A stretch of 64,000 nt of DNA from an uncultured delta proteobacterium (GCA_963842085.1 CAWJET010000001.1:1280001-1344000); one strand, 5' to 3'. Numbered from the stretch's first letter, positions 181 through 19,183 are shown. The notes: generated from the sequence alone by a model not told the origin. Numbers and translations: made by a program.

Positions 181-1515
181 TCATTCAATATGGTATCGCT
201 TTCTCTTGCGCCAGAGCGTTGGGATGCTTATGCCGAGGGTGGCGGCGGCATCTTCGAGCGTCGGAGCAACCGCCAGCACTCGCTTGATGTGTTCTTCCTC
301 CAGCTCCTCGAGGCTTGAATCGGCTGATAGCTGGATCGGGCGCTGAGTGCTCGGCACAAAGAGCACGTCCGAGAGATCTTCCTTGCGTATGACCGTGCCC
401 CGGCTCAGAACGACCGCACGTTCCACCACGTTGCGAAGCTCTCTGATGTTCCCCGGCCACGGATATGGAATCAGGGCCTTCCTGGCCTCATCTGAGAACC
501 GGAGATCAGGGCGGCGATTTCGCGCAGCCGCCTCGGACAACAGCTTCTCGGCCAGTGGCAGAATATCCTCAGGGTGCTCGCGTAGTGCGGGTACTCGGAG
601 GCTGATCACGTTGAGCCGGTAATACAAGTCTGCTCGGAACCGGCTGGCTGCGATCTCCTGTTGCAGGTCGCGATTAGTGGCAGCGATGACGCGCGCGTCG
701 ACCGAAATGGTCTCTTGCCCACCAATCCTTTCGAAGCATCCGTCCTGCAGGAAACGAAGAAATTTCGTCTGAAGAGATAGCGACAGCTCCGCGATCTCGT
801 CAAGAAACAGCGTGCCCTGATTCGCCGCTTCGAGCCGGCCCGGTTTGTCCTTAATCGCGCCCGTAAAGGACCCCTTCATATGGCCGAACAGTTCGCTTTC
901 CAGCAGATGCTCTGAAAGGGTGGTGCAATTCACCGTTACGAAAGGATGCTCGTGTCGCGGGCTCCACTCATGTATCTGGCGCGCGAGCACATTCTTGCCG
1001 GTACCGCTCTCGCCGGTGAGCAGAATACTCGCCTCGCTGCCGGCCGCCGTGAACGCGACTTCGATCAGCTCGCGAAACCGAGTGTCGGCGGAGGCCAGCA
1101 ACGGAACGCCGTCGATCGAGTCGCGCAGTGCACGATTTTGAGAGCGCAAATTCTGGACCTCGAGAGCGCGCTCAACCGCGTGCTGAACCTGATCAAGGGA
1201 AAACGGCTTGATGAAATAATCATATGCACCCGCCTTCATGGCCGCGACTGCGTTGTCGATCGTGCCGTAAGCGGTCATGAGAATCACAATTGTTCCGGGA
1301 AACTTCGCCTTGATGCTTTTGAGCAGCTCCAAACCATTCATCTCGGCCATCCGCCAATCGCTCAAGACCAGGTCGAAGTCCCCGCACTTCGACATAACAT
1401 CCAGCGCCTGGCGCCCGCTGTCCGCGGTGGCAACCTGGTAATTGCAAGACTCGAGGAACTTGGCGAGTGTCTGCCGAATGTTCCTTTCGTCATCTACGAT
1501 CAGCAGTTTAGGCAT
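181..1515 (-). CDS. Sigma54-dependent response regulator (REC-AAA+-Fis HTH, NtrC family)
   Basis: IVDDE/LSDWRM receiver, GESGTGK Walker A, GSFTGA loop, LFLDEI, WPGNIRELRN, C-terminal HTH. Confidence 0.95.
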   Translation of the reverse strand: MPKLLIVDDERNIRQTLAKFLESCNYQVATADSGRQALDVMSKCGDFDLVLSDWRMAEMNGLELLKSIKAKFPGTIVILMTAYGTIDNAVAAMKAGAYDYFIKPFSLDQVQHAVERALEVQNLRSQNRALRDSIDGVPLLASADTRFRELIEVAFTAAGSEASILLTGESGTGKNVLARQIHEWSPRHEHPFVTVNCTTLSEHLLESELFGHMKGSFTGAIKDKPGRLEAANQGTLFLDEIAELSLSLQTKFLRFLQDGCFERIGGQETISVDARVIAATNRDLQQEIAASRFRADLYYRLNVISLRVPALREHPEDILPLAEKLLSEAAARNRRPDLRFSDEARKALIPYPWPGNIRELRNVVERAVVLSRGTVIRKEDLSDVLFVPSTQRPIQLSADSSLEELEEEHIKRVLAVAPTLEDAAATLGISIPTLWRKRKRYHIE

Positions 1516-2585
1516 CAGGACTCCAGGGAAAGCGGCAGCGTCAACGCTACTCTGCCGCCGTCTTGAAACGTTTCCGCGAACAATCTGCCGCCGTGCGCCT
1601 CGACGATCTCCCTCGCGATCGCGAGGCTGACTCCGCCTTCGGGGTTGTCCAAGACTGCGCCGGCCTGAGGCGTATTCTCGAAGATCAGTTCTCGAACACG
1701 AGGCGGAATTCCCGGGCCGCTGTCCCAGACAGATACTCTGACCTGTCTGTCTTCCTGCTCCGCAGTCAAATCGATCCTTCCCATCTCAGGAGTATAGCGC
1801 AGCGCATTGCCGACAAGAGTAGCTATCACCCACGACAGCTTCAGCGGATCGCCTGTGACTGCCGGAATCTTTTCGGCGCGCACCGCGAATTGGATTTTCC
1901 GACGCTCAAACCGGCCTTCAAATTTTCTGCAAACGAAGTCGAACAGAGTCCTGAGTTCGAAATCCATATTCTCAAGCGCGATCGATCCTGGTCGCCCGCG
2001 CACAAAATTAAGAAAGTCAGCAGATGCATGGTTGAGCCGATCAACATCTTCGATGATCTCACGGATCAGTTCGTTCTGCTCCTCTCTGCCGCGTTGCAGT
2101 AGTCCCGCTGCCAGAGACAGGGATGTCAGCGGAGTATTGAGCCGCTGGGCAACGGCCGCGACAGCGGTATCGTGAGCCCTGCTTCTTTCGCGACGTAGGG
2201 AAATATCATGAAGGACGACCAACGTACCAAGAGAATTGCCGCTCCCGTGGCGCAGCGGGGCAGCCTTCAGAAGATATTCATGATCGCGGCCTTGCACTGT
2301 CAGACTAACTTCCGCCTGCTGCTCGCCGGGTGGAAAGCTCCTGGCGCTTTCGAGCGCCGCTCGAACGAGCGGGAAACTGGCGCAGTGATGTTCGATGTCG
2401 TGATTGAATTGATGACCGATGACTCGATCGCGATCGATGGCCAGGATCTCAGCAGCCGCCCGATTCATGTGGACGACGGTCCCGGCCTGATCGAGGACGA
2501 ACGCAGGTTCGTCAAGACTATCGACTATCGCCGCGGCCCGATCGTCTTCAGTGGAAGATCCTCGCCGTACCGTCTGCGCGGCCAT
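1515..2585 (-). CDS. Soluble PAS-HisKA-HATPase protein with degenerate H-box (probable pseudokinase)
   Basis: PAS-like N-terminus; AQRLNTPLTSL at the H-box position; GNALRYT, DSGPGI; G2 box eroded (EGGVSLAI). Confidence 0.85.
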   Translation of the reverse strand: MAAQTVRRGSSTEDDRAAAIVDSLDEPAFVLDQAGTVVHMNRAAAEILAIDRDRVIGHQFNHDIEHHCASFPLVRAALESARSFPPGEQQAEVSLTVQGRDHEYLLKAAPLRHGSGNSLGTLVVLHDISLRRERSRAHDTAVAAVAQRLNTPLTSLSLAAGLLQRGREEQNELIREIIEDVDRLNHASADFLNFVRGRPGSIALENMDFELRTLFDFVCRKFEGRFERRKIQFAVRAEKIPAVTGDPLKLSWVIATLVGNALRYTPEMGRIDLTAEQEDRQVRVSVWDSGPGIPPRVRELIFENTPQAGAVLDNPEGGVSLAIAREIVEAHGGRLFAETFQDGGRVALTLPLSLES

Positions 2586-2594
2586 CCAAGTGAT

Positions 2595-3191
2595 CTACTT
2601 CGTCATGGCGGTCGGTTGATTGCCGGTGGTTGCGTCGAGCGCGAGATTGAGTTCCAGGACGTTCACGCCGGGCTCGCCCAGAAACCCAGCCCATCGCGGC
2701 TGCGTGTTGGCGTTGACGAGGGCACGCACAGTATCCGCGCTGATGCCACGAACCTTGGCCACCCGTTCAATTTGAATCTCGGCGGCAGCGGGGCTGATCT
2801 GCGGGTCAAGGCCGCTGCCGGAGGCTGTTACCATATCCACCGGGACCTGCGACGCCGAAACACTATCTTCCTCCACAACGGCCTTGGTCCGCTGCTTGAC
2901 GGAATCGATAAAGCTCTTGTTGGTCGGGCCAAGGTTAGAACCGCCTGAGCTGGTCGGATCATAGCCGTTGTTTCCCGCGGCAGAAGGGCGGGGATGAAAG
3001 TAGCGAGCGGCTTTGAAGTTCTGGGCTATCAGCGCGGATCCTACGGGCGATCCGTTCCGATAGATCAGGCTGCCGCCAGCCTGGTCGGGAAATAATACGT
3101 GACCGACCTCAAGCATCGCGATTGGATACACTATCCCAGTCAAAAGGGTCAGGACGACCGTCATCTTGATAGCAACCATCAGAGAACGCAT
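2595..3191 (-). CDS. kdpC: K+-transporting ATPase subunit C (operon 2)
   Basis: YFHPRPSA, SGGSNLGP, TASGSGLDPQIS, VNVLELNLALD. Confidence 0.97.
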   Translation of the reverse strand: MRSLMVAIKMTVVLTLLTGIVYPIAMLEVGHVLFPDQAGGSLIYRNGSPVGSALIAQNFKAARYFHPRPSAAGNNGYDPTSSGGSNLGPTNKSFIDSVKQRTKAVVEEDSVSASQVPVDMVTASGSGLDPQISPAAAEIQIERVAKVRGISADTVRALVNANTQPRWAGFLGEPGVNVLELNLALDATTGNQPTAMTK

Positions 3192-3203
3192 TCGAATTCT
3201 CCT

Positions 3204-5252
3204 CTAAGCCAAATGAATCGTGGTGATCAGCAGGTCAATCGCCTTGATGCCAATGAAAGGCGCGATGATGCCGCCAAGCCCATAGATGAGCAGATTGCGA
3301 GCGAGTATTCCGGCCGCTCCGACTGGACGATACTGCACGCCGCGTAGAGCGAGCGGGATCAAGGCGATGATGATCAAGGCGTTGAAGATGACCGCTGACA
3401 GAATCGCGCTCTCGGGCGTCGCGAGATGCATGATGTTGAGCGCCTGCAGCTCAGGATAAGCCAGCAGGAACATCGCGGGAATAATCGCGAAGTACTTCGC
3501 GACGTCATTTGCCACTGAAAAGGTAGTCAGCGCGCCGCGCGTAATCAGCAACTGCTTTCCAATCTCGACCACTTCCATGATCTTGGTCGGGTTGGAATCA
3601 AGATCGACCATGTTTCCGGCTTCGCGCGCTGCCTGAGTGCCAGCGTTCATTGCGATTCCCACGTCCGCCTGCGCCAAGGCCGGCGCGTCGTTGGTGCCAT
3701 CGCCGATCATCGCCACCAGCTTGCCTTGGGCCTGCTCGTCGCGAATCAGGCGCAGTTTAGTCTCAGGAGTGGCCTCAGCTCGAAAATCATCGACGCCAGC
3801 TTCAAAAGCAATGGCGGATGCGGTCAGGGGATTGTCGCCGGTTATCATCACGGTGCGTAGTCCCATGGCCCGCAGTCTCGCGAAGCGTTCCTTGATACCT
3901 TCCTTTATGACGTCCTTGAGGTGGATAACTCCGAGAATGTGATTGTTCTCCGCGACCACGAGCGGGGTGCCACCGCTCTTTGAGATTCGTTCCACTATCC
4001 CGTCGAGTTCCTGTGGAATGCTGCCACCCGCATCGCGAGCAAACTTAATCACGCGATCCGAAGCACCTTTACGGATTTTGCGTCCTGGCATGTCGACGCC
4101 GCTCATCCGCGTCTGCGCCGAAAATGCAATGAACTCGGTATCCTTTTCCTCCAGTTCGCGTCCGCGGATGTTGAATTCCCGCTTGGCGAGAACCACGATC
4201 GATCGTCCTTCGGGGGTTTCATCCGCGAGCGACGCAAGCTGGGCAGCATCGGCCAACTGTTCGACCCGCACGTCGAGTACGGGGATGAACTCAACCGCCA
4301 TTCGGTTGCCGAGCGTGATGGTCCCGGTCTTGTCGAGTAGAAGCGTATCGACGTCCCCTGCTGCTTCCACCGCGCGTCCGGACATTGCCAGCACGTTGTG
4401 CTGCACCAAGCGGTCCATTCCGGCGATACCTATCGCGGATAATAGTCCCCCGATTGTCGTCGGGATAAGGCAGACCAGCAGGGCAACCAGCACGGGTAAC
4501 GTTAACGATGCGTTGCCGTAAAGACCGAATGGGTAGAGGCTCACGCAGACCAGCATGAACACGAGGGTCAGACCCGACAGTAATATGCTCAGGGCGATCT
4601 CATTCGGCGTTTTCTGGCGTGCCGCGCCTTCAACCAGGGCAATCATTCGATCAAGGAAGGTCTCGCCTGGATTGGCGGTGATCCGCACCTTGATCCAGTC
4701 GGAAATAACAGTAGTGCCGCCAGTTACGGCGCTGCGATCGCCGCCGCTCTCGCGAATCACTGGCGCCGACTCGCCGGTAATAGCAGCCTCGTTGACCGCC
4801 GCCATCCCTTCGATCACCTCGCCATCACCAGGGATCGATTCACCAGCGCGTACTATGACTACATCGCCACGGCGTAGTGAAGTCGCCTGTACAGTTTCCT
4901 CCTTGCCATCGCGCAGCACCGCAGCGTGCATTTCGATCCGAGTCTTACGCAGGTTGTCGGCTTGCGCCTTCCCGCGTCCTTCAGCCATTGCCTCGGCGAA
5001 GTTGGCAAAGAGGACCGTGAACCACAGCCATATCGCAATCTGTAGCTCGAATCCGATAAGTCCGGCCTTACCTGTAAACAAATCGCGGAAGATGATTATC
5101 GTCACCGCCACTGCGGTAACTTCCACCACAAACATCACCGGGTTACGGGCCTGGATGCGCGGATCGAGCTTGCCGAGCGATTCGAACGCAGCGCGTTTCA
5201 CAATCTCCGGCTGCCACAGGGGCGTTACCTTACGTTCAGTCGTATTAGCCAC
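3204..5252 (-). CDS. kdpB: K+-transporting ATPase subunit B (operon 2)
   Basis: [36 protein letters not shown]. Confidence 0.98.
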
Positions 5253-5267
5253 TTTCGTTCAGCCTCG

Positions 5268-6995
5268 TTAGTAAAGTTTTCCGCTCATCATCGCCAGATG
5301 TTCAACAATCGGACCCAGCGACCAACTGGCGAAAAAGGTTAGAGCGCCGACGATGAGCACTACCGCGGCGAGGAGGATTACAAACAGACCACCGTTAGTC
5401 GGGAAGGTGCCTGCGCTCACCGGTACGGCCTTCTTCTCGACCACAGAACCAGCGATCGCCAGCACCGGGATCATGGTGCCGAAGCGCCCAAACAACATCA
5501 CCGTTCCTAGGATGACGTTGTAAAACATGGTGTTAGCGTTCAACCCAGCAAACGCCGAACCGTTGTTAGCAGCGGCTGACGAGAACGCGTAAAGAATCTC
5601 GCTAAAGCCGTGCGGTCCCGCATTAGCTATTGAAGAAAGCGCACCCTTATTAACTACAGCAGCTGCCGTTGGAAGCAGTATCACTGCCGCGAAGATCAGG
5701 ATGTACAGCATCGCCAATTTCATCTCGCGTGCCTGTATCTTCTTGCCCAGGTACTCCGGCGTGCGCCCTACCATCAGCCCCGCGATGAACACCGTCAGGA
5801 TCGCCATTACGATCATTCCCGCGAGTCCGGTACCTACACCGCCGAACACCACTTCGCCGAGGTGCAGATTGAAGATCGGAACCAGGCCGCCTATTGGAGT
5901 GAAGCTGTCGTGCATCGAATTGACGGACCCATTGGACGCGTCGGTAGTAGCAGTGGCCCACATCGCGGAGTTGACGATCCCGAAGCGCACCTCCTTGCCT
6001 TCCATGTTGCCGCCGCTCTGCTGAGCAGATGCGGTTTGGTTGATTCCGATGGAAGCGAACTGCGGGTTGCCGCGCTGTTCAGCCCGCGTGCATACAACTA
6101 CGGCGCCCAGAAAGAGCAGACCCATCGTTGCGTAGAGTGCCCATCCTTGGCGTTTGTCCCCGACCATCTTGCCAAACGTATGGGGCAACGCGGCGCCAAG
6201 GATAAAGATCGCAAACAGCTCAAGAAAATTAGTAAGCGGTGTTGGATTCTCGAACGGATGAGCTGAGTTGGCGTTGAAGAAGCCGCCGCCATTGGTGCCC
6301 AGCTGCTTGATCGCAATCTGCGATGCTACCGGACCTTGGGCGATACTCTGTGCGGCTCCTTCGACTGTCTTTACGCTAGTGTAGGCGCTGAAGTTATCGG
6401 GCACGCCCTGCCATATCAGAACCAGAGTGAAAACTATGCAGATCGGAATCAGGATCCACAGCGTCGCGCGGACCAGGTCGTACCAGAAGTTTCCAATGGT
6501 ACGGATGCCGTGTCGAGCAAAACCCCGGATGACGGCGATCGCGATCGCCAAACCCGCTGCCGCCGATACGAAGTTGTGGAACGCGAGGCCCGCCATCTGA
6601 GTCAGATAACTCATGGTGGATTCGCCTGAGTAAGCCTGCCAGTTGGTATTGGTCGTGAAGCTTGCCGCGGTATTGAATGCGAGCCCGGGTTCGACCCCGG
6701 CAAATCCCTGCGGATTCAGCGGCAGGAAATACTGCAAGCGTTCCAGCGCGTATAAGACTATCATCCCGACGAAACTGAACAGCAGCACCGAGATCGTATA
6801 TTCGACCCAGGTCTGCTCCGTTGCCGGCTTGACCCCGCACAGCCGATAAATCAGACGCTCGACTGGCGTAAGGACCGGATCCAGAAACGTGCGCTCGCCT
6901 GCAAAAACGCGCGCCATGTAAAGCCCGAGCGGCACGCTAATGATGGTGAGAACCACCGAGTAGAAACCGATTTGAATTAAAGCGTTACTAAACAC
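5268..6995 (-). CDS. kdpA: K+-transporting ATPase subunit A (operon 2)
   Basis: Filter motifs TNTNWQ, GTNGGG, ASNGS, NNGSAF; GRTPEYLGKK. Confidence 0.98.
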   Translation of the reverse strand: MFSNALIQIGFYSVVLTIISVPLGLYMARVFAGERTFLDPVLTPVERLIYRLCGVKPATEQTWVEYTISVLLFSFVGMIVLYALERLQYFLPLNPQGFAGVEPGLAFNTAASFTTNTNWQAYSGESTMSYLTQMAGLAFHNFVSAAAGLAIAIAVIRGFARHGIRTIGNFWYDLVRATLWILIPICIVFTLVLIWQGVPDNFSAYTSVKTVEGAAQSIAQGPVASQIAIKQLGTNGGGFFNANSAHPFENPTPLTNFLELFAIFILGAALPHTFGKMVGDKRQGWALYATMGLLFLGAVVVCTRAEQRGNPQFASIGINQTASAQQSGGNMEGKEVRFGIVNSAMWATATTDASNGSVNSMHDSFTPIGGLVPIFNLHLGEVVFGGVGTGLAGMIVMAILTVFIAGLMVGRTPEYLGKKIQAREMKLAMLYILIFAAVILLPTAAAVVNKGALSSIANAGPHGFSEILYAFSSAAANNGSAFAGLNANTMFYNVILGTVMLFGRFGTMIPVLAIAGSVVEKKAVPVSAGTFPTNGGLFVILLAAVVLIVGALTFFASWSLGPIVEHLAMMSGKLY

Positions 6996-7011
6996 TTTTG
7001 TCTTCTCGCCT

Positions 7012-7104
7012 TTAGAATTTTTCCGGCCGCAACAACGCGTAGACCAAGTACACAGTCAGGCCGACAGCCATTATCGAACCCATTGCTATTTCCCAAGGCG
7101 TCAT
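7012..7104 (-). CDS. kdpF: KdpF small subunit (30 aa)
   Basis: Hand translation MTPWEIAMGSIMAVGLTVYLVYALLRPEKF; typical YL..AL..PEKF ending, directly upstream of kdpA. Confidence 0.93.
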   Translation of the reverse strand: MTPWEIAMGSIMAVGLTVYLVYALLRPEKF

Positions 7105-7184
7105 AGTTTTTCGCACCCCCATACGTATGCGACCGCAACTAGAAAGAACGCCACCGTTCCGATGAGGAAAATTGTATCGAGCAT
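7101..7184 (-). CDS. Small membrane peptide upstream of kdpF (KdpZ-like, 27 aa)
   Basis: MLDTIFLIGTVAFFLVAVAYVWGCEKL; ATGA overlap with kdpF; paralogue at 12788-12883. Confidence 0.8.
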   Translation of the reverse strand: MLDTIFLIGTVAFFLVAVAYVWGCEKL

Positions 7185-7208: not shown

Positions 7209-7224
7209 AGCATAAAGCGTGCCT
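7209..7224 (-). promoter_or_regulatory. Sigma54 -24/-12 promoter of kdp operon 2
   Basis: Minus strand AGGCACGCTTTATGCT (GG-N10-GC). Confidence 0.7.
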
Positions 7225-7277: not shown

Positions 7278-7290
7278 TTTCAAAATGATA
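7278..7290. promoter_or_regulatory. Putative activator binding site (TTTCA-N3-TGAAA family)
   Basis: TTTCAAAATGATA upstream of the sigma54 box. Confidence 0.55.
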
Positions 7291-7439
7291 TGTGACACTG
7301 CGAATCGAAACAGGGAGCCAGCGTCGAAGAGCCGCATTAGCAGTTTCCGGGATGGAGCGATCGGATACAAAAAGCTTGCGGGATCCGCATAGTCGCGACC
7401 CCGCAAACTTTTACTTAAAGAGAGAGAAAACCGGACTGC

Positions 7440-8453
7440 CTATTGTGGCGTCTCGTAGCGGCTTGCCAATTGCAAATTGACCAGAAGAACATTGACGAAC
7501 TTTTCCCCAAACAGACCGCCAAGGGGAGCCGAAGCGTTTGCCTCCAGGATTTGCTCGATTTGATCGTGCACCTGCTTCGGGTCCAGTTTCTTATCAGCCG
7601 CCCACTTCTGAGCGACGCGATCCAACTGATATTCCGCGTTATCCAGCGTGATATCCGGATCAAGGCCCGACGCCGATGCCATAACCATGTCAGCGGGGAC
7701 ATCCTGGAGCGGCGCATCTGGATGGTCCTGTCTCCACATATCGAAGAAGATCGATTGGACGTCCGATCCGCTGGCGACCAGTTCGATGTCGGTTTGCGAT
7801 TTGCCATTAGGCAGCTGCTTGGTCACTGACGATGGGAACTTGCCCGGATTGTCCTTGGAGAAATTCTCGAAGAACAGGACGGCAAGGTCCGACGCCTGCG
7901 GCTGAGGCGTGCCCGGATTCTGCTTGATCCAGTCGTCCACCGCGCTCTTGTGACTCTTGGACCAGTCAGTTACGTACTGAGCGTGAGCAGGATCAGCGCT
8001 TACCCATCCTTGCGCGAGCCCATTGTGGTTGTCGGCCCATTGTGCAACGAGGTGGGGCTGCCCCTGGTATTGATCTTTCTGAAACCACGCCTCGATGTCG
8101 GGAGCAACCAACTGGCCAGCTTCGGGGCCGCTCTTGTATTTGACGATGGGCCCCAGCATCCGCGCGACCCTATCTCGCAGCGCATAGTTGGACGCCGCGA
8201 GTGCCGACGAGGTACTGGCGGAGGCATCATAAGACGCGGCTGAAGGCCGTGGCCAGAAGTACTCGTCCTTGGTGAACGGCTGTGCGATCTGCAGCGAGCC
8301 GACTGGCTTGCCGTCCGGTCCCGTGACCATGCTGCTGTTGGCGGTGAATGGAAAGAAGGTCTGGCCGATAGCCCACACTGCGAGCGGATAGGCTATAGCG
8401 CAAATTACGACCGTCGCAGCTAGAAGCATCAGGCTTTTGATTATGTTTCGCAT
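7440..8453 (-). CDS. kdpC: KdpC, long variant (337 aa, operon 1)
   Basis: YFWPRPSA and ASASGLDPDIT motifs separated by a large insertion relative to the 198-aa copy. Confidence 0.92.
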   Translation of the reverse strand: MRNIIKSLMLLAATVVICAIAYPLAVWAIGQTFFPFTANSSMVTGPDGKPVGSLQIAQPFTKDEYFWPRPSAASYDASASTSSALAASNYALRDRVARMLGPIVKYKSGPEAGQLVAPDIEAWFQKDQYQGQPHLVAQWADNHNGLAQGWVSADPAHAQYVTDWSKSHKSAVDDWIKQNPGTPQPQASDLAVLFFENFSKDNPGKFPSSVTKQLPNGKSQTDIELVASGSDVQSIFFDMWRQDHPDAPLQDVPADMVMASASGLDPDITLDNAEYQLDRVAQKWAADKKLDPKQVHDQIEQILEANASAPLGGLFGEKFVNVLLVNLQLASRYETPQ

Positions 8454-8483
8454 CGTTTTTCCTGTCTTCGAAGAAGACGGTCT

Positions 8484-8610
8484 CTAGCAGGTTGCGGAAA
8501 AAGGGTTTTTGACTCCTGATGACATTGATCCAAGACGCATTCTCGTGATCGTAGTAATGCTTACTCTTCGCCGAAATCGTCTTTCATTGAGTTTTTCCGC
8601 AACCTGCTAG
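8484..8610. mobile_element. MITE copy 2, overlapping the kdpB stop codon
   Basis: Identical to 36-162; right-hand CTAG (8607-8610) contains the kdpB TAG on the minus strand. Confidence 0.9.
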
Positions 8611-10772: not shown

Positions 10773-10836
10773 TGTCTAATCCTTAGTGAGTCAATCGCGC
10801 GTAAAAGTGTCACGCTCTAAGAGTTGAGCCCTTCGG

Positions 10837-12654
10837 CTAACCGCCAAATGGTAATGGTCCAAGATGTTCCGCGACTGGACCGAGTGCGGCTACAGGCAAG
10901 AACAACAAGGCGCCGACTATTGCGATCGTTCCAACCAGCAAGCATCCGAAAGTGAAAGTATCGTCGCGCAGGGTCCCTAAGCCGAAGGGCGTGGTCTTTT
11001 TCATTCCAAGGAAACCAGCCATCGCGATCGGCGCCAAAATCGGCAAGAAGCGGCCGAGCATGATGACTATTCCCGCCGCTATGTCCCAAGGAACAGCTTC
11101 GGGCGCGGCGTTTGGATTGTTATTCAGCCCGTAGGTGACGCCCAGGCCATCGAATGCGGAGCCGTTGTTAGCTGAGTCCGATGAGAATTGGTAAACGATC
11201 TGCGAAAATCCGTGCGATCCCGGATTGCTCTCAGCTTTTATTCCCCAGTTTGTTGCGGAAAATAATCCCGCGGGGAAGAGAATGACCAGCGGATGCACCA
11301 GCAGCGCAATCAACGCCAGTTTTACTTCGCGCGCACCGATCTTCTTTCCCAGGTACTCAGGCGTTCGACCAACCATCTGCCCAACTACGAAGATGCCGAT
11401 GATGAGAAAGAGCAGCATGTTGATCATGCCGACGCCTTTGCCACCGTAGATGCAGTTCACCCACATCCCAAAGAAGGGCGACAACGCCGCCATCGGATTA
11501 AGACTGTCGTGCTCACAGATAATTGCGCCGCAGGTGAAATCCACCGTGGCGGCCGCAAACGTCGAGCCCGCTGAAGTCCCGAAGCGCAACTCTTTGCCCT
11601 CCAGGTTGCCCAGATGCTGATCGACAGGCAGGCCCGCCACAGCTGGCAGAGTAATGTCGCGCTTACCGCCGGGCGCAGTAGCGCTTGCGATCGAGAACGT
11701 TCTACTTTGCGGGTGGGCTGTAAGCCCTGGGTTAGGCTTTAGAGTGTCGAAGTAGATTGACCAGAGAATCGTGCCCGCAAGCAGGGCAAACATCACCGAG
11801 AATATGACGAGCGAATGGCGCCGTCGACGGAGCATGATGCCGTACATCCACACCAACGCCATCGGAAACCACATCATCGACGATGTCGTAATGAAATTCG
11901 ACGCGGCGTCCGGATTTTCAAACGGATGCGCTGAATTCATTCCGAAGAATCCACCTCCGTTCGTTCCCAGCATCTTCATTGGAACAAAGGCAGCCAGGGG
12001 ACCAGTCACAATGGTTTGCTGTTTGGGCTGATTGTTGTTGTCCGTACCCATCGCGGCAGGTTCGAGCGTGTTCACCTGGTAGTCGCTCTGGTAGGTCATC
12101 GGCATGCCTTGAACCAAAAAGACCATGCTGAGGATGAAGACCGCAGGCAGGAATGTGTAGAACACAACACGCCACATATCCTGGAAAAAGTTGCCGACAT
12201 GCTCATCGCTGCGAAAAGCTCGAATGATTGCGGTCAGGGCGCAAAACCCAATCGCGGCCGAAAGAAAGAACATCGGAAGACAGAAGAATATCTGACTGAA
12301 ATTCGAGAACGACTGATCGCCCGAATAGTGTTGAATGTCGGTGTTGGTACTGAACGATATGACCGTGTTGAAAATGGTGGTCGGCGAAAGTGCTCCGAGG
12401 CCTCGTGGGTTCAGGGGAGCCCACGGCTGAACCACCAGGACGAGATATCCGAAAGCGTAAAGAACGGTATTGAATACGAGCAGAGAGACTGCATACTGCT
12501 TCCAGTTCTGCGGTCCGCTGCTAACCCGGTCCTCACACCACTTAAATAGCAGTGGAGGACGGTAACGTCCGTCCATGATCCACGCGAGATACTTGCCCAG
12601 CGGATAGGAAACAGCAACGCTGAAAATGAGAACCGTGATAGGCAAAGACCACAT
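10837..12654 (-). CDS. kdpA: K+-transporting ATPase subunit A, divergent (operon 1)
   Basis: TNTDIQ, GTNGGG, FTCGA, NNGSAF, GRTPEYLGKK. Confidence 0.96.
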   Translation of the reverse strand: MWSLPITVLIFSVAVSYPLGKYLAWIMDGRYRPPLLFKWCEDRVSSGPQNWKQYAVSLLVFNTVLYAFGYLVLVVQPWAPLNPRGLGALSPTTIFNTVISFSTNTDIQHYSGDQSFSNFSQIFFCLPMFFLSAAIGFCALTAIIRAFRSDEHVGNFFQDMWRVVFYTFLPAVFILSMVFLVQGMPMTYQSDYQVNTLEPAAMGTDNNNQPKQQTIVTGPLAAFVPMKMLGTNGGGFFGMNSAHPFENPDAASNFITTSSMMWFPMALVWMYGIMLRRRRHSLVIFSVMFALLAGTILWSIYFDTLKPNPGLTAHPQSRTFSIASATAPGGKRDITLPAVAGLPVDQHLGNLEGKELRFGTSAGSTFAAATVDFTCGAIICEHDSLNPMAALSPFFGMWVNCIYGGKGVGMINMLLFLIIGIFVVGQMVGRTPEYLGKKIGAREVKLALIALLVHPLVILFPAGLFSATNWGIKAESNPGSHGFSQIVYQFSSDSANNGSAFDGLGVTYGLNNNPNAAPEAVPWDIAAGIVIMLGRFLPILAPIAMAGFLGMKKTTPFGLGTLRDDTFTFGCLLVGTIAIVGALLFLPVAALGPVAEHLGPLPFGG

Positions 12655-12696
12655 TCGCTTTCCGTCCTATTTGAGTGACTTCAGAAGTGAAAGTTG

Positions 12697-12777
12697 CTAA
12701 AACCATTCGGGCCGAACCATCGCAGCGACCAGATACCCGAACACGAAGACTGCAACGACAGCTGTGACGTAAATCAT
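12697..12777 (-). CDS. kdpF: KdpF small subunit (26 aa)
   Basis: Hand translation MIYVTAVVAVFVFGYLVAAMVRPEWF. Confidence 0.9.
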   Translation of the reverse strand: MIYVTAVVAVFVFGYLVAAMVRPEWF

Positions 12778-12787
12778 GACACCCAAC

Positions 12788-12883
12788 CTAAATATTTTCG
12801 CAACCGATCAAGAACAGATAGCAGAGACCCAGACCTGCAAGCCCGAGCACAAACGTCGCTGGCAGCCAAATCCAAAGATTCAT
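12788..12883 (-). CDS. Small membrane peptide upstream of kdpF (KdpZ-like, 31 aa)
   Basis: MNLWIWLPATFVLGLAGLGLCYLFLIGCENI with GGAGG RBS; ends GCExx like 7101-7184. Confidence 0.8.
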   Translation of the reverse strand: MNLWIWLPATFVLGLAGLGLCYLFLIGCENI

Positions 12884-12974: not shown

Positions 12975-12990
12975 AGCAACTTCGGTGCTT
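12975..12990 (-). promoter_or_regulatory. Imperfect sigma54-like box upstream of kdp operon 1
   Basis: AAGCACCGAAGTTGCT; AG replaces the conserved -24 GG. Confidence 0.35.
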
Positions 12991-13098: not shown

Positions 13099-13111
13099 TT
13101 TCATAATGAAA
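13099..13111. promoter_or_regulatory. Putative activator binding palindrome
   Basis: TTTCATAATGAAA. Confidence 0.6.
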
Positions 13112-13252: not shown

Positions 13253-13265
13253 TTTCAATATGAAA
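13253..13265. promoter_or_regulatory. Putative activator binding palindrome
   Basis: TTTCAATATGAAA. Confidence 0.6.
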
Positions 13266-13352
13266 AGACTCCTGCCCGGCGGTGCGGATGCGCCTGTGGC
13301 AAAAGGCAATTGAATCCATATGAACAGCCGGGTTTTCCCCCGAGTGCCTCTG

Positions 13353-13368
13353 TGGCGCGGTAATTGCT
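13353..13368 (+). promoter_or_regulatory. Sigma54 -24/-12 promoter of USP-antiporter unit
   Basis: TGGCGCGGTAATTGCT (GG-N10-GC). Confidence 0.7.
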
Positions 13369-13405
13369 GATCCTTATTTCCAGCGGAGGACACGGCATAC
13401 ACCAT

Positions 13406-13912
13406 ATGGATGAAGACACACCGCAGATTCTGGTTCCAATCGACTTTTCCTCCGATTCGCAGCCGGCGCTGGAATATGCCGTTGGCTTGGCCCGGAGACA
13501 ATTCTCTGAAATCGTCTTGATCCATGTGGTCGAATCTTTACCGCACGGGGTCTATCAGTGGTGCGATCCTTCAGACCTGCATGACCAACTTGCGAAAAAC
13601 GCAAGGCGTCACCTTGAATGTTTCGAGAAACGAGCGCTCGATCTATATCCGCACTGCAGGAGCGAGGTTCATTTCGGAGCGCCCGCACAAGCGATTGCGA
13701 CGCGCGCAAGCACCCTCAAGGCAAAAATGATCGTCGTATCTGTTCGCCGCCGAACCGGCATTTTCGACAGATTGCTCGAAGGATTGCCTGAGAAACTATT
13801 GCGCCTCGCGCCCTGTCCCGTGCTCGCAGTCCAATCCGCTGCGAGCGACCGCCGAACCACCTTAGCTTCCAGCCATCCTCAAGATACCCTGAACTGTCTC
13901 AGTCTTTTTTAG
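13406..13912 (+). CDS. Universal stress protein
   Basis: ILVPIDFSSDS..ALEYA, LIHVV, LLRLAPCPVLAV. Confidence 0.9.
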   Translation: MDEDTPQILVPIDFSSDSQPALEYAVGLARRQFSEIVLIHVVESLPHGVYQWCDPSDLHDQLAKNARRHLECFEKRALDLYPHCRSEVHFGAPAQAIATRASTLKAKMIVVSVRRRTGIFDRLLEGLPEKLLRLAPCPVLAVQSAASDRRTTLASSHPQDTLNCLSLF

Positions 13913-14014: not shown

Positions 14015-16573
14015 ATGGATCTTCAAGTCATCCTGTTGTTGCTGGCCGGGCTATTGATCGCAGTTGCATTCAGTCAGCCACTGGCCGATCGACTCGGGCT
14101 GTCACCGTCCGTCCTGTTGGCCTTGGTCGGGATAGTGATTGGACTGACTTCGATCCTTCTGACACACACTGGGCTAATCGCGTTTACCTCGATGGCAAAC
14201 GTGATCGTCAATCTGCCGTTTCACTCAGAAGCGTTCCTGTACATTTTCCTGCCTATGCTGGTGTTCGAGGCGGGCTTGAACATCGAAGTGCGGCGCATAG
14301 TAGAAGATGCGGCGCCAATTCTCCTGCTCGCAGTGGTCGCGGTTCTGGTCGCGACCGTCTTCATCGGCGTGGCGCTGACGCCGCTGGCAAAAGTTCCGAC
14401 CGTCGCCTGTTTCATGCTCGGCTCGATTGTGGCGACCACTGATCCAGTCGCCGTAATCGCAATCTTCCGCGATGTGGGAGCGCCCTCGCGGCTGAGTCGG
14501 CTGGTCGAAGGCGAGAGCCTTCTCAACGACGCTGCGGCTATTACGCTGTTCGTGATGCTGCTGCAGAGCCTGATCGGCGGGCAACCGCTCGGTCTCGGCG
14601 CCGCACTTGTCTCGTTCACGCGCAGCTTCGTGGGCGGCATGATCGTCGGATACATCGGCGCGCGGGCGCTCATCGGTATGCTGCGATGGCTGCTCGATCT
14701 GCGCCTCGCACAAGTGACTGTCACGCTTGCGCTGCCATATATTGTTTATATTGTTGCTGAGCGCGAACTGGGAGTTTCTGGAGTAGTGGCGACTCTTACC
14801 TCGGGGCTGGTCATGAGTGCCACCGGGCAGCGGCGCATGGCGCCTGACGATTGGCATTTTCTGCGCGAGATTTGGGAGCAACTCGCATTCTGGGCGAGCT
14901 CGCTGATTTTTTTGCTGGCTTCTTTGCTCGTCCCGCGAATGCTGCTCAATGCCGATTGGCACGACATAACGCTGCTCGGCGTGTTGATTGGAGCGGCGTT
15001 CGTCGCGCGGGCGCTGGTCGTGTTCGGCTTGCTCCCGCTGATGAGCTGGCTCGGTCTGAGCCCGGCAATCGACAATCGCTTCAAGGCCGTGATTGTGTGG
15101 GGCGGGTTGCGCGGCGGATTGACGCTGGTGCTGGCGCTTTCCGTGACGGAGAATCACGGTATTGCGCCGGAGGTACAGCGGTTCGTCGCGACACTCGCGA
15201 CAGGCTTTGTCGTATTCACCCTTCTCGTCAACGGCACGACCCTGCGCTTTCTGCTTCGTCTGGTGGGGCTTGACCGACTCTCCAGCGTCGACCGGGCGCT
15301 GCGCGATCAAGTGCTCAGACTGTCGCGAGCTCGAGTTGCTGACGCCGTTCATAAGATCGGCAACGGATATGAATTTTCCGAAGGTCTGATTTCCGAAGTC
15401 ACTCGCGAGTTGGCCGCTGGGGCAACCGCAGCGAGCAGCACTGCATCGAGCGTAAGCGACGACGACGCCCATCAGCTCCTGCTCGGGCTGGTCGCGCTGG
15501 CGAACCACGAACGCGAGCTCGTCCTGGGGCACTTTGCTGAACGCACCATCTCCGGACACATCGTCGAAGAGATGCTGGTTGGCGCAGGACGCCTGATCGA
15601 TCACAGTCGCACCGGCGACCCGGCCGAATATCTCCGCGTCGCGCAGGAGATGGTCGATTTCTCGCGATGGTTTCGATTCACCCACTGGCTGCATCGTAGT
15701 CTCAGGATCGAAGCGCTCCTGGTCGATCGCCTGGCGGAACGGTTCGAGTCGCTGTTGGTCCAGCAGATCATACTCAGAGAGCTGGAGAAGTACCTGGAAG
15801 AAAAGTTGGTTCCACTGGTCGGTGCGAAGCTGGGCTTGAGGTTGCGCGAGGTGATGCGTGGGCGTCGCGAGATGACCAGCACGGCGTTGGAGGCATTGCG
15901 TCAGCAATACCCGTCCTATGCCGAGAACCTCGAGCGCCGCATCTTAAACCGCACATGGCTTCGGCGTGAAGACATGGAGTACCGTTCCTTGTTCGAAGAG
16001 GGAGTCATTGGCCCCGAGCTTTACAGCGACCTGCGCCGAAAAGTGCAGCTGAGTCGATCCGAAGTCGAGGTCCGACCGCGCCTCGATCTTGGGCTCGAGA
16101 CCAGGGAGCTCGTGGCCAAGGTACCGATGTTTGCAAAACTGAGCGAGACCCAACTTGATATTATCGCGCGCAAGCTGAAACCCCAGTTTGCCATCCCGGG
16201 GGAGCGGCTCATTCGCGACGGCGACCGCGCCGACGCTATGTACTTCATCTCGTCTGGAAAGGTAGATGTCGAGGTTGTGGGGCAGACGATTCATCTGAAG
16301 CCGGGCGACTTCTTCGGTGAGATGGGACTTGTGACCGGCCAGCGCCGGCGCGGTGACGTTTACGCGCGCAGCTATTGCCACCTCCTCGTCCTGAGAGACA
16401 CGGACTTCAACAATGTGCGGCGAAGCGACAAGTCGCTCGAAGCACAAATCGAAGCCGTAGCGAGTGCTCGTATTGCGATGAACCAGCAAGCGACCGACAA
16501 GTTAGCGGATAGGCCGGAATCTCCGGATGAGACAACACCTTCAGGAGAATTTCGTCGGAACTCAGATTCCTGA
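14015..16573 (+). CDS. CPA1 (NhaP-type) cation/H+ antiporter with C-terminal cNMP-binding domain
   Basis: ATTDPVAV, EGESLLNDA, WGGLRG; C-terminal GDFFGEMGL...RRGDV. Confidence 0.92.
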   Translation: MDLQVILLLLAGLLIAVAFSQPLADRLGLSPSVLLALVGIVIGLTSILLTHTGLIAFTSMANVIVNLPFHSEAFLYIFLPMLVFEAGLNIEVRRIVEDAAPILLLAVVAVLVATVFIGVALTPLAKVPTVACFMLGSIVATTDPVAVIAIFRDVGAPSRLSRLVEGESLLNDAAAITLFVMLLQSLIGGQPLGLGAALVSFTRSFVGGMIVGYIGARALIGMLRWLLDLRLAQVTVTLALPYIVYIVAERELGVSGVVATLTSGLVMSATGQRRMAPDDWHFLREIWEQLAFWASSLIFLLASLLVPRMLLNADWHDITLLGVLIGAAFVARALVVFGLLPLMSWLGLSPAIDNRFKAVIVWGGLRGGLTLVLALSVTENHGIAPEVQRFVATLATGFVVFTLLVNGTTLRFLLRLVGLDRLSSVDRALRDQVLRLSRARVADAVHKIGNGYEFSEGLISEVTRELAAGATAASSTASSVSDDDAHQLLLGLVALANHERELVLGHFAERTISGHIVEEMLVGAGRLIDHSRTGDPAEYLRVAQEMVDFSRWFRFTHWLHRSLRIEALLVDRLAERFESLLVQQIILRELEKYLEEKLVPLVGAKLGLRLREVMRGRREMTSTALEALRQQYPSYAENLERRILNRTWLRREDMEYRSLFEEGVIGPELYSDLRRKVQLSRSEVEVRPRLDLGLETRELVAKVPMFAKLSETQLDIIARKLKPQFAIPGERLIRDGDRADAMYFISSGKVDVEVVGQTIHLKPGDFFGEMGLVTGQRRRGDVYARSYCHLLVLRDTDFNNVRRSDKSLEAQIEAVASARIAMNQQATDKLADRPESPDETTPSGEFRRNSDS

Positions 16574-16731: not shown

Positions 16732-16768
16732 ATTTCAAAATGAAATACTGCCGCTATTCAAAAGGAAA
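16732..16768. promoter_or_regulatory. Tandem putative activator sites
   Basis: ATTTCAAAATGAAAT plus weaker ATTCAAAAGGAAA 23 bp later. Confidence 0.65.
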
Positions 16769-16821
16769 TCTTCTGAACGCATAGCCAGGCGGTAACCCAA
16801 TCAAATCGCGGTGTTTTTCGA

Positions 16822-16837
16822 CGGCACACCCTATGCA
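16822..16837 (+). promoter_or_regulatory. Sigma54 -24/-12 promoter of PII-like gene
   Basis: CGGCACACCCTATGCA (GG-N10-GC). Confidence 0.7.
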
Positions 16838-16898
16838 ATTGAATCCAGGAAATACTGCTGCCGCTTTTCGGATGCGGCGGCCGTCGCTGGGAGAAATC

Positions 16899-17255
16899 GT
16901 GAAGCGAATTGAATTAGTAATAGAACCTTCTGCGCTTGGCCGTTTCATAGAGACCGCGCGAGCGATGAATTTGTCCGATTTCGATGTCACCGAAGTTCGC
17001 CGCTCTCCTTCGCGCGATCGGCGAGAGCGCCAGCGACTATATCGAGGTCAGACGTTTATGGTCGATCTGGAAGAGAAGATCAAAATCGACATCAACGCAG
17101 CCGACGAAGCAGCGAGCAGAACGGCGCACGCGTTGGTTGCGAGAGTCAATCCGGAGAGCGTCGCGATTCTTAGGCTCGACCAGGCAAATCTGTTCGACGA
17201 TTCCGAGCGGGTCAGAGTTAGCGCGCTATCGCGCGAAAACGTCGCTGCAGCGTAA
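16899..17255 (+). CDS. Divergent PII-like (GlnB fold) protein
   Basis: GTG start after GGAGA; MKRIELVIEP...VTEV...LYRG...KIKIDI parallels GlnB. Confidence 0.75.
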   Translation: MKRIELVIEPSALGRFIETARAMNLSDFDVTEVRRSPSRDRRERQRLYRGQTFMVDLEEKIKIDINAADEAASRTAHALVARVNPESVAILRLDQANLFDDSERVRVSALSRENVAAA

Positions 17256-17358
17256 TAACCTCAGAAGGACGCCTGTCGATCCGCGGCATCACCATGATTT
17301 TTAACCTTCGGAGGCTCGCTGCTCGGCCAGGATCTGGTTGGTCGCGAGGGCCAGTTAG

Positions 17359-17493
17359 ATGCCAGTTGTTCTCATAATATTGACGGTTTTGATCGCAGTC
17401 GCTCTCTACTTCGATCGTGGAGAGACGCATGGCGATACAAAAGATGACCGGAAACGGACGCACCATGCAAACATGGTGCATCCTCCGCGCTGA
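17359..17493 (+). CDS. Small single-pass membrane peptide (44 aa)
   Basis: MPVVLIILTVLIAVALYFDRGETHGDTKDDRKRTHHANMVHPPR; GAGG upstream. Confidence 0.45.
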   Translation: MPVVLIILTVLIAVALYFDRGETHGDTKDDRKRTHHANMVHPPR

Positions 17494-17516
17494 TCTGTCC
17501 GCAATTTCTCCACACT

Positions 17517-18074
17517 ATGAAGCCAAACCCGATAGTTCAGTCTCTTTTCACAGGAGGCGTTCCCGGCTCCAAGGTGGATGGGATCTCACTCATCCAATTG
17601 CATCCGCTTGACCCATATACGCTTATCAATACTGAGGCGTCGGATCCTCCTGTAGTACCACCGAAAACCGAAAGGATTCCTTCGCCGGCAACTCGGCGAT
17701 ATTCGAGCCGAATCCGGAAAAGACCGGCCTTCACCGCCGAAGAAACCCGGCACCATTTCGCGATTGAAGCACTTGATAAATCAGGACCGTTCCGACCGCA
17801 GCCATACTTGTACACCTGCGTACGCTGCAGGTGGATCTTTCGCGTCAATGATTCAAGCGGATCCGTCATCGCTCTGGACGGGTTGGGCCGGCGTTTGCCC
17901 GAGCCCGAAAATGCAAAGCGAGCGGTGACCTTTCATCGAGGACCATGTCCTGCGTTTCCAATACTCGAGTACTCGGTCGCGGAGCCTCAGCGCGAGAATA
18001 GCTTTGGCTACCTGTCCAAATTGGTTGATGCGCTCCGCAGCCTCACGCAATTGGGCAGGTATCGCAGGGCATGA
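17517..18074 (+). CDS. Hypothetical protein with CxxC...HxxxC possible metal site
   Basis: YTCVRCRW and FHRGPCP; start uncertain. Confidence 0.55.
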   Translation: MKPNPIVQSLFTGGVPGSKVDGISLIQLHPLDPYTLINTEASDPPVVPPKTERIPSPATRRYSSRIRKRPAFTAEETRHHFAIEALDKSGPFRPQPYLYTCVRCRWIFRVNDSSGSVIALDGLGRRLPEPENAKRAVTFHRGPCPAFPILEYSVAEPQRENSFGYLSKLVDALRSLTQLGRYRRA

Positions 18075-18184
18075 ATGATATCTGAGACCTGGCAGCTTTC
18101 TCAGCTGTCGACGAATACTCCGTAGCTCTGCGCCCTTGGCGCTCTTGATCTGCGGTTGCTTGGCTCCAACTGTTCGTTAGCGGA

Positions 18185-18222
18185 CATTTCATTTTGAAAT
18201 GCCTCGACGCTTCGATTTGAAA
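18185..18222. promoter_or_regulatory. Tandem putative activator sites
   Basis: CATTTCATTTTGAAATG plus weaker CTTCGATTTGAAA 23 bp later. Confidence 0.65.
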
Positions 18223-18258
18223 CCTTCCTAAACGACCGGACAGAAAAACCGTTGCTAG

Positions 18259-19183
18259 GTGGGGCGCGCGGCGGCGGCACGCTTGATGCTTTTTCAGGGC
18301 GTGGCCTCCTCTATCTCACCCGGCTCAAGGCGGCGCGCCAACTCAATTGGTCAGCCAGATCTGAGACTGGTCTCGAGTGGTGGCGTAAACGACCTCGCAG
18401 TCGCGGCAAAGACAGCGGTGATCGCCTGTCTCACTGGCGGCAGTTGCGACAACGGCAAGGTGCTTCATAAAGCCTCGGCCGCCGCTCGCGAACGTGACGG
18501 CGCGTTCTACGCAGTCCTGATCGATTCGCCACGCAACCGATTTGGAAAGGCACAGGTTCGCACCCTGATCGAGGACGCGATCCTTGCCAGATCCTTTGGC
18601 GCGAAAATCGTCTGGTTCGATACGTCCGACCTGGTGGGCGAATTGCTCCAATTCGCGCAAAAAGCACGCATTGGCACGATCTTCGTTAGTCGAGGACGGA
18701 CAACTCGTTTCTCTGGACTATTTCGACGAACGGTGAGCCGCGACCTATTGCGCCGCGCCAAGGGCATTCGCATCGACGTTGTCGGATTTGAACGCGGAAA
18801 ATGGCCATACGCGAGACTGACGTTGGACGAAGAACGCGAAGATCTGAAGGATGCGTCATCGGCGCTGCTCCGTTATCGATGGCCAGGGAATATCCGCGAG
18901 TTGCGCAACGTCATCGAGCGCGCAGTCGGCTTGTGCACAGGTGACGTAGTCAGCCCTGAGCATCTGCCGGATGTCCTCAGCAATGATCGTTCTCAAGCCG
19001 TCGGAGCGACCCAAGCCACCTTCGAGCCTCGACGATATCAAGAGCGAACACATCATCCGCGTGATGGCTGAGTGTCCGACCTTAGAAAGCGCCGCGCACA
19101 AACTGGGCATCAATGTCACGACTCTGTGGCGCCGCCGAAAACGCTATGGACTTGATTCAGCTCACAACCTCCCTGGAGGTTAG
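18259..19183 (+). pseudogene. KdpD-type USP domain joined to an activator AAA+ lid fragment and frameshifted Fis HTH
   Basis: VIACLT...ARSFGAKIV...LLQFAQ...LLRRAKGIRIDVV, then WPGNIRELRNVIERAV; HTH continues in another frame (18971-19183). True start probably downstream of 18300. Confidence 0.7.
18275..18290 (+). promoter_or_regulatory. Sigma54 -24/-12 promoter
   Basis: CGGCACGCTTGATGCT (GG-N10-GC). Confidence 0.7.

Follow-up and report, generated by a model that had tools for sequence, protein, structure and literature searches.

A putative sigma-54-controlled potassium-homeostasis island with a shared palindromic enhancer in an uncultured delta proteobacterium

Regulation of the potassium pump operon kdp is taught as the KdpD/KdpE pair of E. 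coli, in which KdpE works at a sigma-70 promoter. KdpE is described as a winged-helix regulator of the OmpR type acting on direct repeats. Here we analyze a 19-kb stretch (positions 181–19183) within a 64,000-nucleotide window of the genome of an uncultured delta proteobacterium (GCA_963842085.1, CAWJET010000001.1:1280001-1344000; G000:C1:1280001-1344000 in our numbering), which contains two kdp gene sets together with genes for a sigma-54 activator, universal stress proteins (USPs), an antiporter, a PII-like protein and a CxxC protein. A preliminary description had proposed that it forms a non-canonical sigma-54 potassium regulon with its own enhancer palindrome. The genome comprises 4,930,847 bases on two contigs and is rated 100% complete. 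Gene identities were taken from Pfam, with NCBIfam; relatives are genomes of the same genus and carry G numbers, apart from G040, which belongs to another family. Positions without a contig prefix refer to the window.

A sigma-54 route to kdp has been described for D. vulgaris, where the sigma-54 response regulator DVU3334 is reported to control its own kdpFABC operon. The cluster DVU3334–DVU3339 is described as comprising kdpFABC, the split KdpD sensor DVU3336, the kinase DVU3335 and the regulator DVU3334, with no OmpR-type KdpE, and the DVU3334 binding motif is placed in Figure 8 and Tables S7–S9 of PMC3333781. In the literature searched, this one Desulfovibrio system, mapped in vitro, was the sole documented case of sigma-54 control of kdp found; a 2025 comparison of sigma-54 regulons (PMC12316311) has 0 occurrences of kdp or potassium, and PMC3162934 ties sigma-54 to kdp via PTS-Ntr only. 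The sigma-54 route for kdp is hence not a new principle, since the precedent is published for DVU3334. The non-canonical control claimed in the preliminary description is supported in part for this genome, which has rpoN and no canonical full-length KdpD, but not as a novelty.

In its architecture, on which the comparison is based, the island follows the DVU3334 system as described: an NtrC-type regulator ends the kdp operon, the sigma-54 regulator and kinase genes come after kdpC, and an upstream site and a predicted sigma-54 promoter precede kdpF/A. A further, core kdp operon of the same genome (L105) shares the published gene order including the KdpD-like non-kinase sensor, whereas the island has no separate KdpD-N + USP sensor gene. 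The island further differs in that its kinase-like protein lacks the phospho-accepting His, that two pumps and three further units would be controlled, and that PII-like and CxxC proteins are added, to which relatives add a USP and a receiver-less activator. With E. coli KdpD/KdpE it shares the two-component style unit directly after kdpC and the kdpF(A)BC pump as target, but it has an AAA+ sigma-54 activator and a palindromic enhancer in a genome without a DUF4118 KdpD. The NtrB-NtrC-PII system is resembled in the cytoplasmic PAS-HisKA-HATPase protein of about 350 aa, the NtrC-type activator, the sigma-54 promoter and the PII gene within its own regulon; here, however, it is K+ pumps that are targeted, the PII-like protein has diverged, the kinase-like protein is naturally without the His and a contact between PII and kinase is hypothetical. 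Caulobacter DivL, which regulates CckA, has a Tyr in place of the His. DivL, as described, and the island protein are alike in that a kinase fold without the phospho-accepting His is, or in the island would be, reused as a regulator. In the island protein, however, the His has given way to Q or N and the phosphatase Thr has been kept, suggesting that it works as a phosphatase. New here appear to be the His-less kinase, the decayed USP/EBP2 gene and the putative PII-like and CxxC regulon members.

Palindromes and sigma-54 boxes in the window and in related genomes

The 19-kb stretch is best explained as an accessory potassium-homeostasis island, paralogous to the lineage's core sigma-54 kdp control system, and its palindrome is probably bound by a kdp-family NtrC-type activator, of which EBP1 (181–1515) is the resident one. 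The palindrome TTTCA-N3-TGAAA occurs four times in the window, at 13099, 13253, 16733 and 18187, compared to 0.00 exact copies across 100 shuffles, and allowing one mismatch yields five matches, adding the site at 7278, at a shuffle mean of 1.14. In the 4,930,847 bases of the genome there are five exact palindromes, where base composition leads one to expect an estimated 0.9 or so (about 0.9 per genome), and four of the five lie in the locus. The fifth (C2:861620), the sole copy outside the locus, is located within a 529-aa open reading frame (ORF) without an adjacent sigma-54 box. All five sites are thereby found where the preliminary description had placed them, four of them exact and the one at 7278 with a single mismatch.

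The GG-N10-GC boxes are likewise confirmed at 7224–7209 (minus strand), 13353, 16822 and 18275, as is the imperfect one at 12990–12975 (minus strand), which has AG. Hence, four of the five boxes show GG and GC 10 nt apart in a TGGCAC-N5-TTGCW context. The pattern GGCRC-N5-WTGCW has seven matches in the window against 2.46 expected, and four of the seven are the boxes at issue. From the end of the palindrome to the box we measured 53 nt for kdp1, 108 nt for kdp2, 87 nt for the USP-antiporter unit, 76 nt for the PII promoter and 75 nt for the USP/EBP2 promoter, so that palindromes precede boxes by 53–108 nt, in line with the roughly 55–110 bp suggested before. A matrix built from 20 sites in relatives alone ranks 18187, 7278, 16733 and 13253 as the top four positions genome-wide and 13099 as the 11th. 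The weaker second sites proposed 23 nt further on hold up as well, with 16756 ranking 13th and both 16756 and 18210–18223 being conserved (alignments A2 and A3, respectively); the looser match at 5–19, also proposed, ranks about 35th, which is noise level, lies 3′ of the activator gene without a promoter and is dropped. A site with one mismatch and a good box at C2:1307676 lies inside an ORF and was discarded as noise. A sigma-70 scan gave no sigma-70-like match directed into the island units, and the genome has one Sigma54_DBD match, that of rpoN (E=8.2e-64). The cis-regulatory motif set is real and strongly non-random, and in silico there is good support for interpreting it as a sigma-54 potassium regulon. 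Eight soil-metagenome DNA runs contain the locus sequence according to a sequencing-run search; since it is present in DNA runs only, sigma-54 dependence and co-regulation of the five units are predictions.

We then compared the locus to other genomes of the genus. Orthologues of EBP1 with 73–94% identity are present in six of 24 other genus genomes sampled (G009, G004, G005, G021, G011 and G013), and G014 carries a split copy. The spacing between palindrome and box is fixed at 52–54 nt before kdp1 (six loci), 74–77 nt before the PII-like gene (eight loci) and 75–77 nt before USP/EBP2 (six loci). In alignments A2, A3 and A5 the invariant blocks are the palindrome, the weaker site about 23 nt off, a T-run and the -24/-12 elements, and the spacers have otherwise diverged. 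A composite pattern of a palindrome, 50–80 nt and a box matches 32 times, spread over 21 of the 47 genus genomes, while its reversed control gives 0; in the set sampled for EBP1 orthologues, the pattern occurs in all eight EBP1-carrying genomes (8/8, including that of the window) versus one of 17 without EBP1. The tallies for EBP1 orthologues and the composite pattern include the unpublished genomes G018 and G023, in which no EBP1 orthologue was found among the matches listed and the composite pattern is not present either. The motif scan of the genome and of homologous loci therefore finds the palindrome near-unique and conserved with fixed spacing. Among 80 loci with relatives of the activator, three close ones (74–91% identity) adjoin kdp genes, and the other 77 (38–47% identity) are not beside kdp genes.

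In the mechanism that we propose, sigma-54 RNA polymerase would read five units from GG-N10-GC promoters, namely kdp1 with the kinase-like gene and EBP1, kdp2, the USP gene with the antiporter, the PII-like with the CxxC gene, and the decayed USP/EBP2 gene. The switch would be a palindrome of 13–17 bp, (CA)TTTCA-N3-TGAAA(TG), usually accompanied by a weaker site about two helical turns off and bound by a kdp-family NtrC-type activator, the resident intact one being EBP1, which would thereby feed back on its own operon. The inducing signal would presumably be K+ limitation or osmotic stress. Because the co-encoded NtrB-like protein lacks the phospho-accepting His, EBP1 most likely receives its phosphate in trans, the core kdp kinase being one candidate donor, and the NtrB-like protein might itself act as a phosphatase or modulator. 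Its five promoters, one palindrome and three or four paralogous activators make the island a small, sequence-defined system in which to ask whether enhancer-binding paralogues are insulated from one another or cross-talk.

Candidate activators and the core kdp operon

EBP1 has three Pfam domain matches (E=8.7e-67, 2.1e-29 and 6.1e-08), and the alignment reveals an intact receiver with acidic pocket, phospho-Asp, Thr and Lys as well as a Walker A motif and a GSFTGA loop, a variant that is also listed for the D. vulgaris regulator DVU3220. In a midpoint-rooted tree of the AAA+ and helix-turn-helix (HTH) parts, the activators form three well-supported groups, in which EBP2 is sister to EBP3 (97/92) and EBP1 stands apart; kdp-linked activators from two other families fall outside all three groups. 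Both G021 and the genome of the window (G000) keep the sites without an intact EBP2, which favours EBP1 as the binder. We therefore regard EBP1 as the best candidate for binding the palindrome, albeit not the sole one, so that the role as regulator assigned to the gene at 181–1515 before is retained in part: EBP2, EBP3 and EBP4 share its helix, and G016 keeps the site without EBP1.

A third, core kdp operon is located at G000:C1:1696500-1708500 (L105). Its promoter end has a related site, TTGCA-N3-TGAAA, and a strong sigma-54 box, followed by a CxxC gene, a peptide gene and kdpFABC; its distal genes encode a KdpD-like non-kinase sensor (KdpD-N + USP, L105:6545-7705), a HAMP-PAS kinase (L105:7387-9489) and EBP3 (G000:C1:1705988-1707316), which is 62% identical to EBP1. 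All three kdp operons end with a kinase-like gene and an NtrC-type regulator. In 12 of the 15 regions fetched, the core promoter is conserved together with its two-site enhancer, the left half-site being ATGCA in ten genomes, TTGCA in one and ATGCG in one, and TTTCA in none of the 12. Outside the kdp operons, the region upstream (to 263500) of a 553-aa APC permease gene (G000:C1:261567-263228; L108:3068-4729) contains a sigma-54 box, TGGCATGCTTCCTGCT, and two near-palindromes, TTACAAAATGAAA and TTTCATTTTGCAA (C1:263406/263481). The proximal site of this promoter, TTTCA-N3-TGYAA, is conserved without the island in G012 and G016, both of which lack EBP1; the pair was reassigned to the core type for this reason, which makes the permease a possible member of the core K+ regulon. 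Since the core left half is never TTTCA and the APC site is kept in island-less genomes, the symmetric palindrome is an island variant.

The same gene order is found in another family of the class: in G040 (L134, G040:C4:48500-61500), kdpABC is accompanied by genes for a KdpD-N sensor, a kinase and a sigma-54 regulator and has the sigma-54 box TGGCACGGCCGCTGCT, with a different upstream inverted repeat (GCTGCAC...GTGCAGC). DUF4118 has 0 matches in the genome of the window, rated 100% complete (KdpE was not itself searched for), and a canonical full-length KdpD is thus missing; both KdpD-N proteins are non-kinase, and one of them is an orphan (G000:C1:2352815-2354059). Taken together, the core operon architecture, G040, rpoN and the lack of DUF4118 suggest that sigma-54 control of kdp is the norm of this lineage and the window its accessory copy. 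While textbooks present KdpD/KdpE, this whole soil lineage would follow the sigma-54 route as a rule, with a sigma-54 core kdp operon found in most genomes of the genus as well as in another family, and the route would have been duplicated into a mobile island with an enhancer variant.

Several observations weigh against a regulon of five units served by EBP1. At -24, where GG is near-invariant, the kdp2 box has AG, and its conservation proves little: AGCACCGAAGTTGCT is identical in the window, G009 and G004 at 107–108 nt from the palindrome, but the kdp2 region is 84% identical overall across these three loci with the AG box. The co-occurrence of EBP1 and its sites is partly trivial owing to physical linkage and kin genomes. 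Comparison with ten related loci found the USP-antiporter unit in none of them; its TGGCGC-type promoter would drive the CxxC gene in relatives. No RNA run was among the sequencing runs matched to the locus. A partner without the phospho-accepting His means that EBP1 needs another phosphate donor. EBP1, EBP2, EBP3 and EBP4 share the near-identical recognition helix TLWRKR(K/R)RY, because of which the binder of the palindrome is not uniquely assigned and cross-binding is possible. Finally, G016, without an EBP1 orthologue, has a perfect palindrome and promoter before an orphan KdpD-type USP gene.

The last of these points bear on an alternative in which the palindromes are served mainly by EBP3, the island being wired into the core K+ regulon and EBP1 having other or redundant targets. 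Such cross-wiring would be in keeping with the nearly identical recognition helices, with core sites that differ by only one or two bases, with the palindrome-promoter unit of G016, and with the complete sensor-kinase set of EBP3 where the partner of EBP1 is predicted to be unable to autophosphorylate. We nevertheless consider it unlikely, as the core sites have a left half other than TTTCA in 12 of 12 genomes, the same holds for the APC permease sites of island-less genomes, and symmetric sites are restricted to island genomes and G016. Moreover, the residues right before the recognition helix are ISIPT in EBP1 and INVTT in EBP3, and EBP1 is conserved at 73–94% identity with an intact receiver.

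G016 also harbors a kdp2-type operon with no kinase gene, directly behind which a receiver-less activator is encoded whose GSFTGA loop is intact and which has the INVTT helix (L150, G016:C4:108500-116500). It adds a fourth way in which kdp is wired to sigma-54 in this genus.

Kinase-like, PII-like, CxxC and USP/EBP2 products

In layout the protein encoded at 1515–2585 resembles NtrB, and it shares 37% identity with the core kdp kinase over the latter's C-terminal half. It is not a normal kinase: the H-box His is replaced in all eight island orthologues (8/8; Q in three including the window, N in five; alignment A8), and the same alignment has the His in three of three core-type kinases. T151 (His+4), N260, D288, G290 and G292 are invariant in all 11 proteins (eight island and three core-type). 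Since the eight island orthologues, only 40–78% identical, share the loss and yet keep the N, G1 and phosphatase motifs, the loss points to a selected state and not to decay. A Thr or Asn at His+4 is reported to be required for the phosphatase activity of HisKA proteins, NRII-H139N is described as phosphatase-only, and PII is described to activate the NRII phosphatase. We predict from these residues that the protein is kinase-dead and phosphatase-competent, i.e. a phosphatase or modulator of EBP1. His-less kinases or PII-like proteins in kdp loci were not found in the literature searched, a search that was non-exhaustive. A natural His-less kinase paralogue beside a PII-like protein makes the idea of a phosphatase-only sensor directly testable; a complex prediction of the two proteins scored 0.00 and was not used either way.

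The product of 16899–17255 appears to be a true but divergent member of the PII family. Its single-sequence Pfam and NCBIfam scores are below cut-off, a PDB profile matches PII at E=6.4e-13, and the AF2 model (pLDDT 68) has the secondary structure E-H-E-loop-E-H-E and retrieves exclusively PII/GlnK proteins as top Foldseek matches (E=1.5e-06, TM 0.55–0.62). What we take to be the canonical Gly-rich B-loop of PII was not evident by eye in the PII-like sequences. The gene adjoins kdp in all eight loci with aligned promoters (8/8). The CxxC protein (17517–18074), without a Pfam or NCBIfam match, carries the motif YxCxRCxWxFxVND...GPCP and has orthologues in six related loci. In ten genus genomes the core kdp operon begins with a gene for a paralogue (L105:1566-1913 in that of the window), so that the family is found downstream of kdp-type sigma-54 promoters in island and core alike. 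Both proteins are thus candidate members of the regulon. The assignment of units had to be revised insofar as the box at 18275 would drive the decayed USP/second-activator gene and not the PII-like gene, which follows the promoter at 16822.

At 18259–19183, a KdpD-type USP is fused to an AAA+ lid, with the AAA+ core deleted and a frameshift before the HTH; in the window the stop codon between USP and EBP2 is changed to TGG. The intact two-gene form, a USP directly followed by the receiver-less EBP2, is found in G004, G005, G013 and G014. In three relatives we considered read-through of the stop codon from USP into EBP2, which was rejected, since a TGA or TAA stop followed by a TTG or ATG start is read more simply as two coupled genes. 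The GAFTGA loop of EBP2 is degenerate in five of five orthologues read, which come from the genomes just named and from G009, where the USP gene is missing; the loops read GAFNGA, GRPGGA, GAFDGA (twice) and GASSGA. Because the loop is degenerate in all five copies, EBP2 may in relatives be a non-activating DNA binder or an anti-activator. EBP2 sits on long branches in the activator tree.

These proteins could be assembled into an NtrB/NtrC/PII-style circuit for potassium, in which EBP1 would be phosphorylated in trans by the core KdpD-sensor/kinase, the His-less NtrB-like protein of the island would be a dedicated phosphatase with its activity set by the kdp-specific PII-like protein, the PII-like and KdpD-type USP proteins might read a nucleotide such as cyclic di-AMP (c-di-AMP), and EBP2 would serve in relatives as an anti-activator that occupies the palindrome with a ruined GAFTGA loop. 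We put this scheme forward tentatively and regard it as doubtful in its entirety. The USP and PII-like proteins could conceivably respond to c-di-AMP, since a DAC-domain diadenylate cyclase (G000:C2:750249-750599) and the orphan KdpD-N protein are encoded. If true, such a layered activator/phosphatase/decoy design on one enhancer is not known to have been described for kdp.

The broken EBP2 gene raises the question whether this genome is losing the control circuit, with the motifs left as relics. Its reading frame has a deletion and a frameshift, the His is lost, the kdp2 box has AG at -24, and remnants of an integrative conjugative element and insertion sequences lie at 19.6–29.2 kb, with a transposase upstream. 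Against this, the His loss recurs in all eight orthologues with the N, G1 and phosphatase motifs kept, the kdp genes, EBP1 and the PII-like gene are all open and conserved, and four palindromes are perfect, which makes decay very improbable. That the palindrome belongs to an unrelated factor (e.g. of the CRP or XRE type) or to chance or a repeat, its proximity to the boxes being coincidental, is hardly credible: its binding is a prediction and a cNMP-binding domain and an HTH_3 gene occur close by, but the sigma-54 boxes keep a fixed distance from it in up to eight loci, the reversed control has 0 matches in 47 genomes, related half-sites occur at the core kdp promoter, and the relatives keeping the sites have no cNMP antiporter.

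Feature coordinates and neighbouring genes

Table 1. Coordinates of the island features in the window; boxes, enhancers and promoters are predicted. The last feature lies in relatives.
Feature	Position	Strand	Details	Basis
EBP1	181–1515	-	NtrC-type response regulator: receiver, sigma-54 AAA+ domain with GSFTGA, HTH_8	Pfam, alignment
NtrB-like protein	1515–2585	-	PAS-HisKA-HATPase without phospho-accepting His (Q)	Pfam, alignment
kdp1 operon	2595–7184	-	runs on into kinase-like gene and EBP1; 27-aa peptide 7184–7101, kdpF 7104–7012, kdpA 6995–5268, kdpB 5252–3204, kdpC 3191–2595	Pfam, sequence
kdp1 sigma-54 box	7209–7224	-	AGGCACGCTTTATGCT; conserved in 6 loci
kdp1 enhancer	7278–7310		TATCA-TTT-TGAAA, minus strand 7290–7278; second element TTTCGATTCGCAG, 7310–7298
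Terminator-like hairpin	7377–7389	-	3′ of kdpC2, dividing kdp2 from kdp1
kdp2 operon	7440–12883	-	31-aa peptide 12883–12788, kdpF 12777–12697, divergent kdpA 12654–10837, kdpB 10772–8607, long kdpC (337 aa) 8453–7440	Pfam, NCBIfam, sequence
kdp2 imperfect sigma-54 box	12975–12990	-	AAGCACCGAAGTTGCT; AG at -24
kdp2 enhancer palindrome	13099–13111		TTTCATAATGAAA; oriented to kdp2
USP-antiporter promoter	13253–13368	+	palindrome TTTCAATATGAAA 13253–13265; sigma-54 box TGGCGCGGTAATTGCT 13353–13368
USP gene	13406–13912	+		Pfam, NCBIfam
Antiporter gene	14015–16573	+	CPA1 Na+(K+)/H+ antiporter with C-terminal cNMP-binding domain	Pfam, NCBIfam
PII promoter region	16733–16837	+	palindrome TTTCAAAATGAAA 16733–16745; second site TATTCAAAAGGAAAT 16756–16770
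PII promoter sigma-54 box	16822–16837	+	CGGCACACCCTATGCA
PII-like gene	16899–17255	+	divergent PII-family signal protein, 118 aa, GTG start
CxxC gene	17517–18074	+	small conserved CxxC...GPCP protein, 185 aa, no known family
USP/EBP2 promoter region	18187–18290	+	palindrome TTTCATTTTGAAA 18187–18199; second site CTTCGATTTGAAAC 18210–18223
USP/EBP2 promoter sigma-54 box	18275–18290	+	CGGCACGCTTGATGCT
USP + EBP2 gene remnant	18259–19183	+	decayed; ORF 18259–19071 with AAA+ lid as only domain
USP + EBP2 loci of relatives	L015:15947-17572; L016:16802-18322; L019:9843-11468; L014:16222-17843

The long KdpC2 (7440–8453) owes its size to an insert of about 140 residues that splits two KdpC-matching ends, and this form is kept in relatives at 68–92% identity. 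Immediately upstream of the window (L110, G000:C1:1268000-1280200) lie genes for an ammonium transporter, a DUF1646 transporter, a 488-aa sigma-54 activator, a 684-aa APC-family protein and an rve_3 transposase; a palindrome with up to one mismatch is not present at the L110 genes. A further P-type cation ATPase (E1-E2, Cation_ATPase_N/C) is encoded at 40247–42769 and is unlinked to the palindrome. The window contains no tRNA gene. At the edge of the mobile element, a minus-strand ORF (19157–19552) starts with an HTH_8-like stretch (E=0.00045) and is possibly the tail of another broken activator. Beyond it, 19600–29250 comprises a decayed conjugative element with insertion-sequence remnants, the debris of which includes HTH_3, SprT-like and TrbC pilin genes, a coupling-protein fragment, an rve transposase, a truncated TrwC relaxase and a tyrosine integrase.

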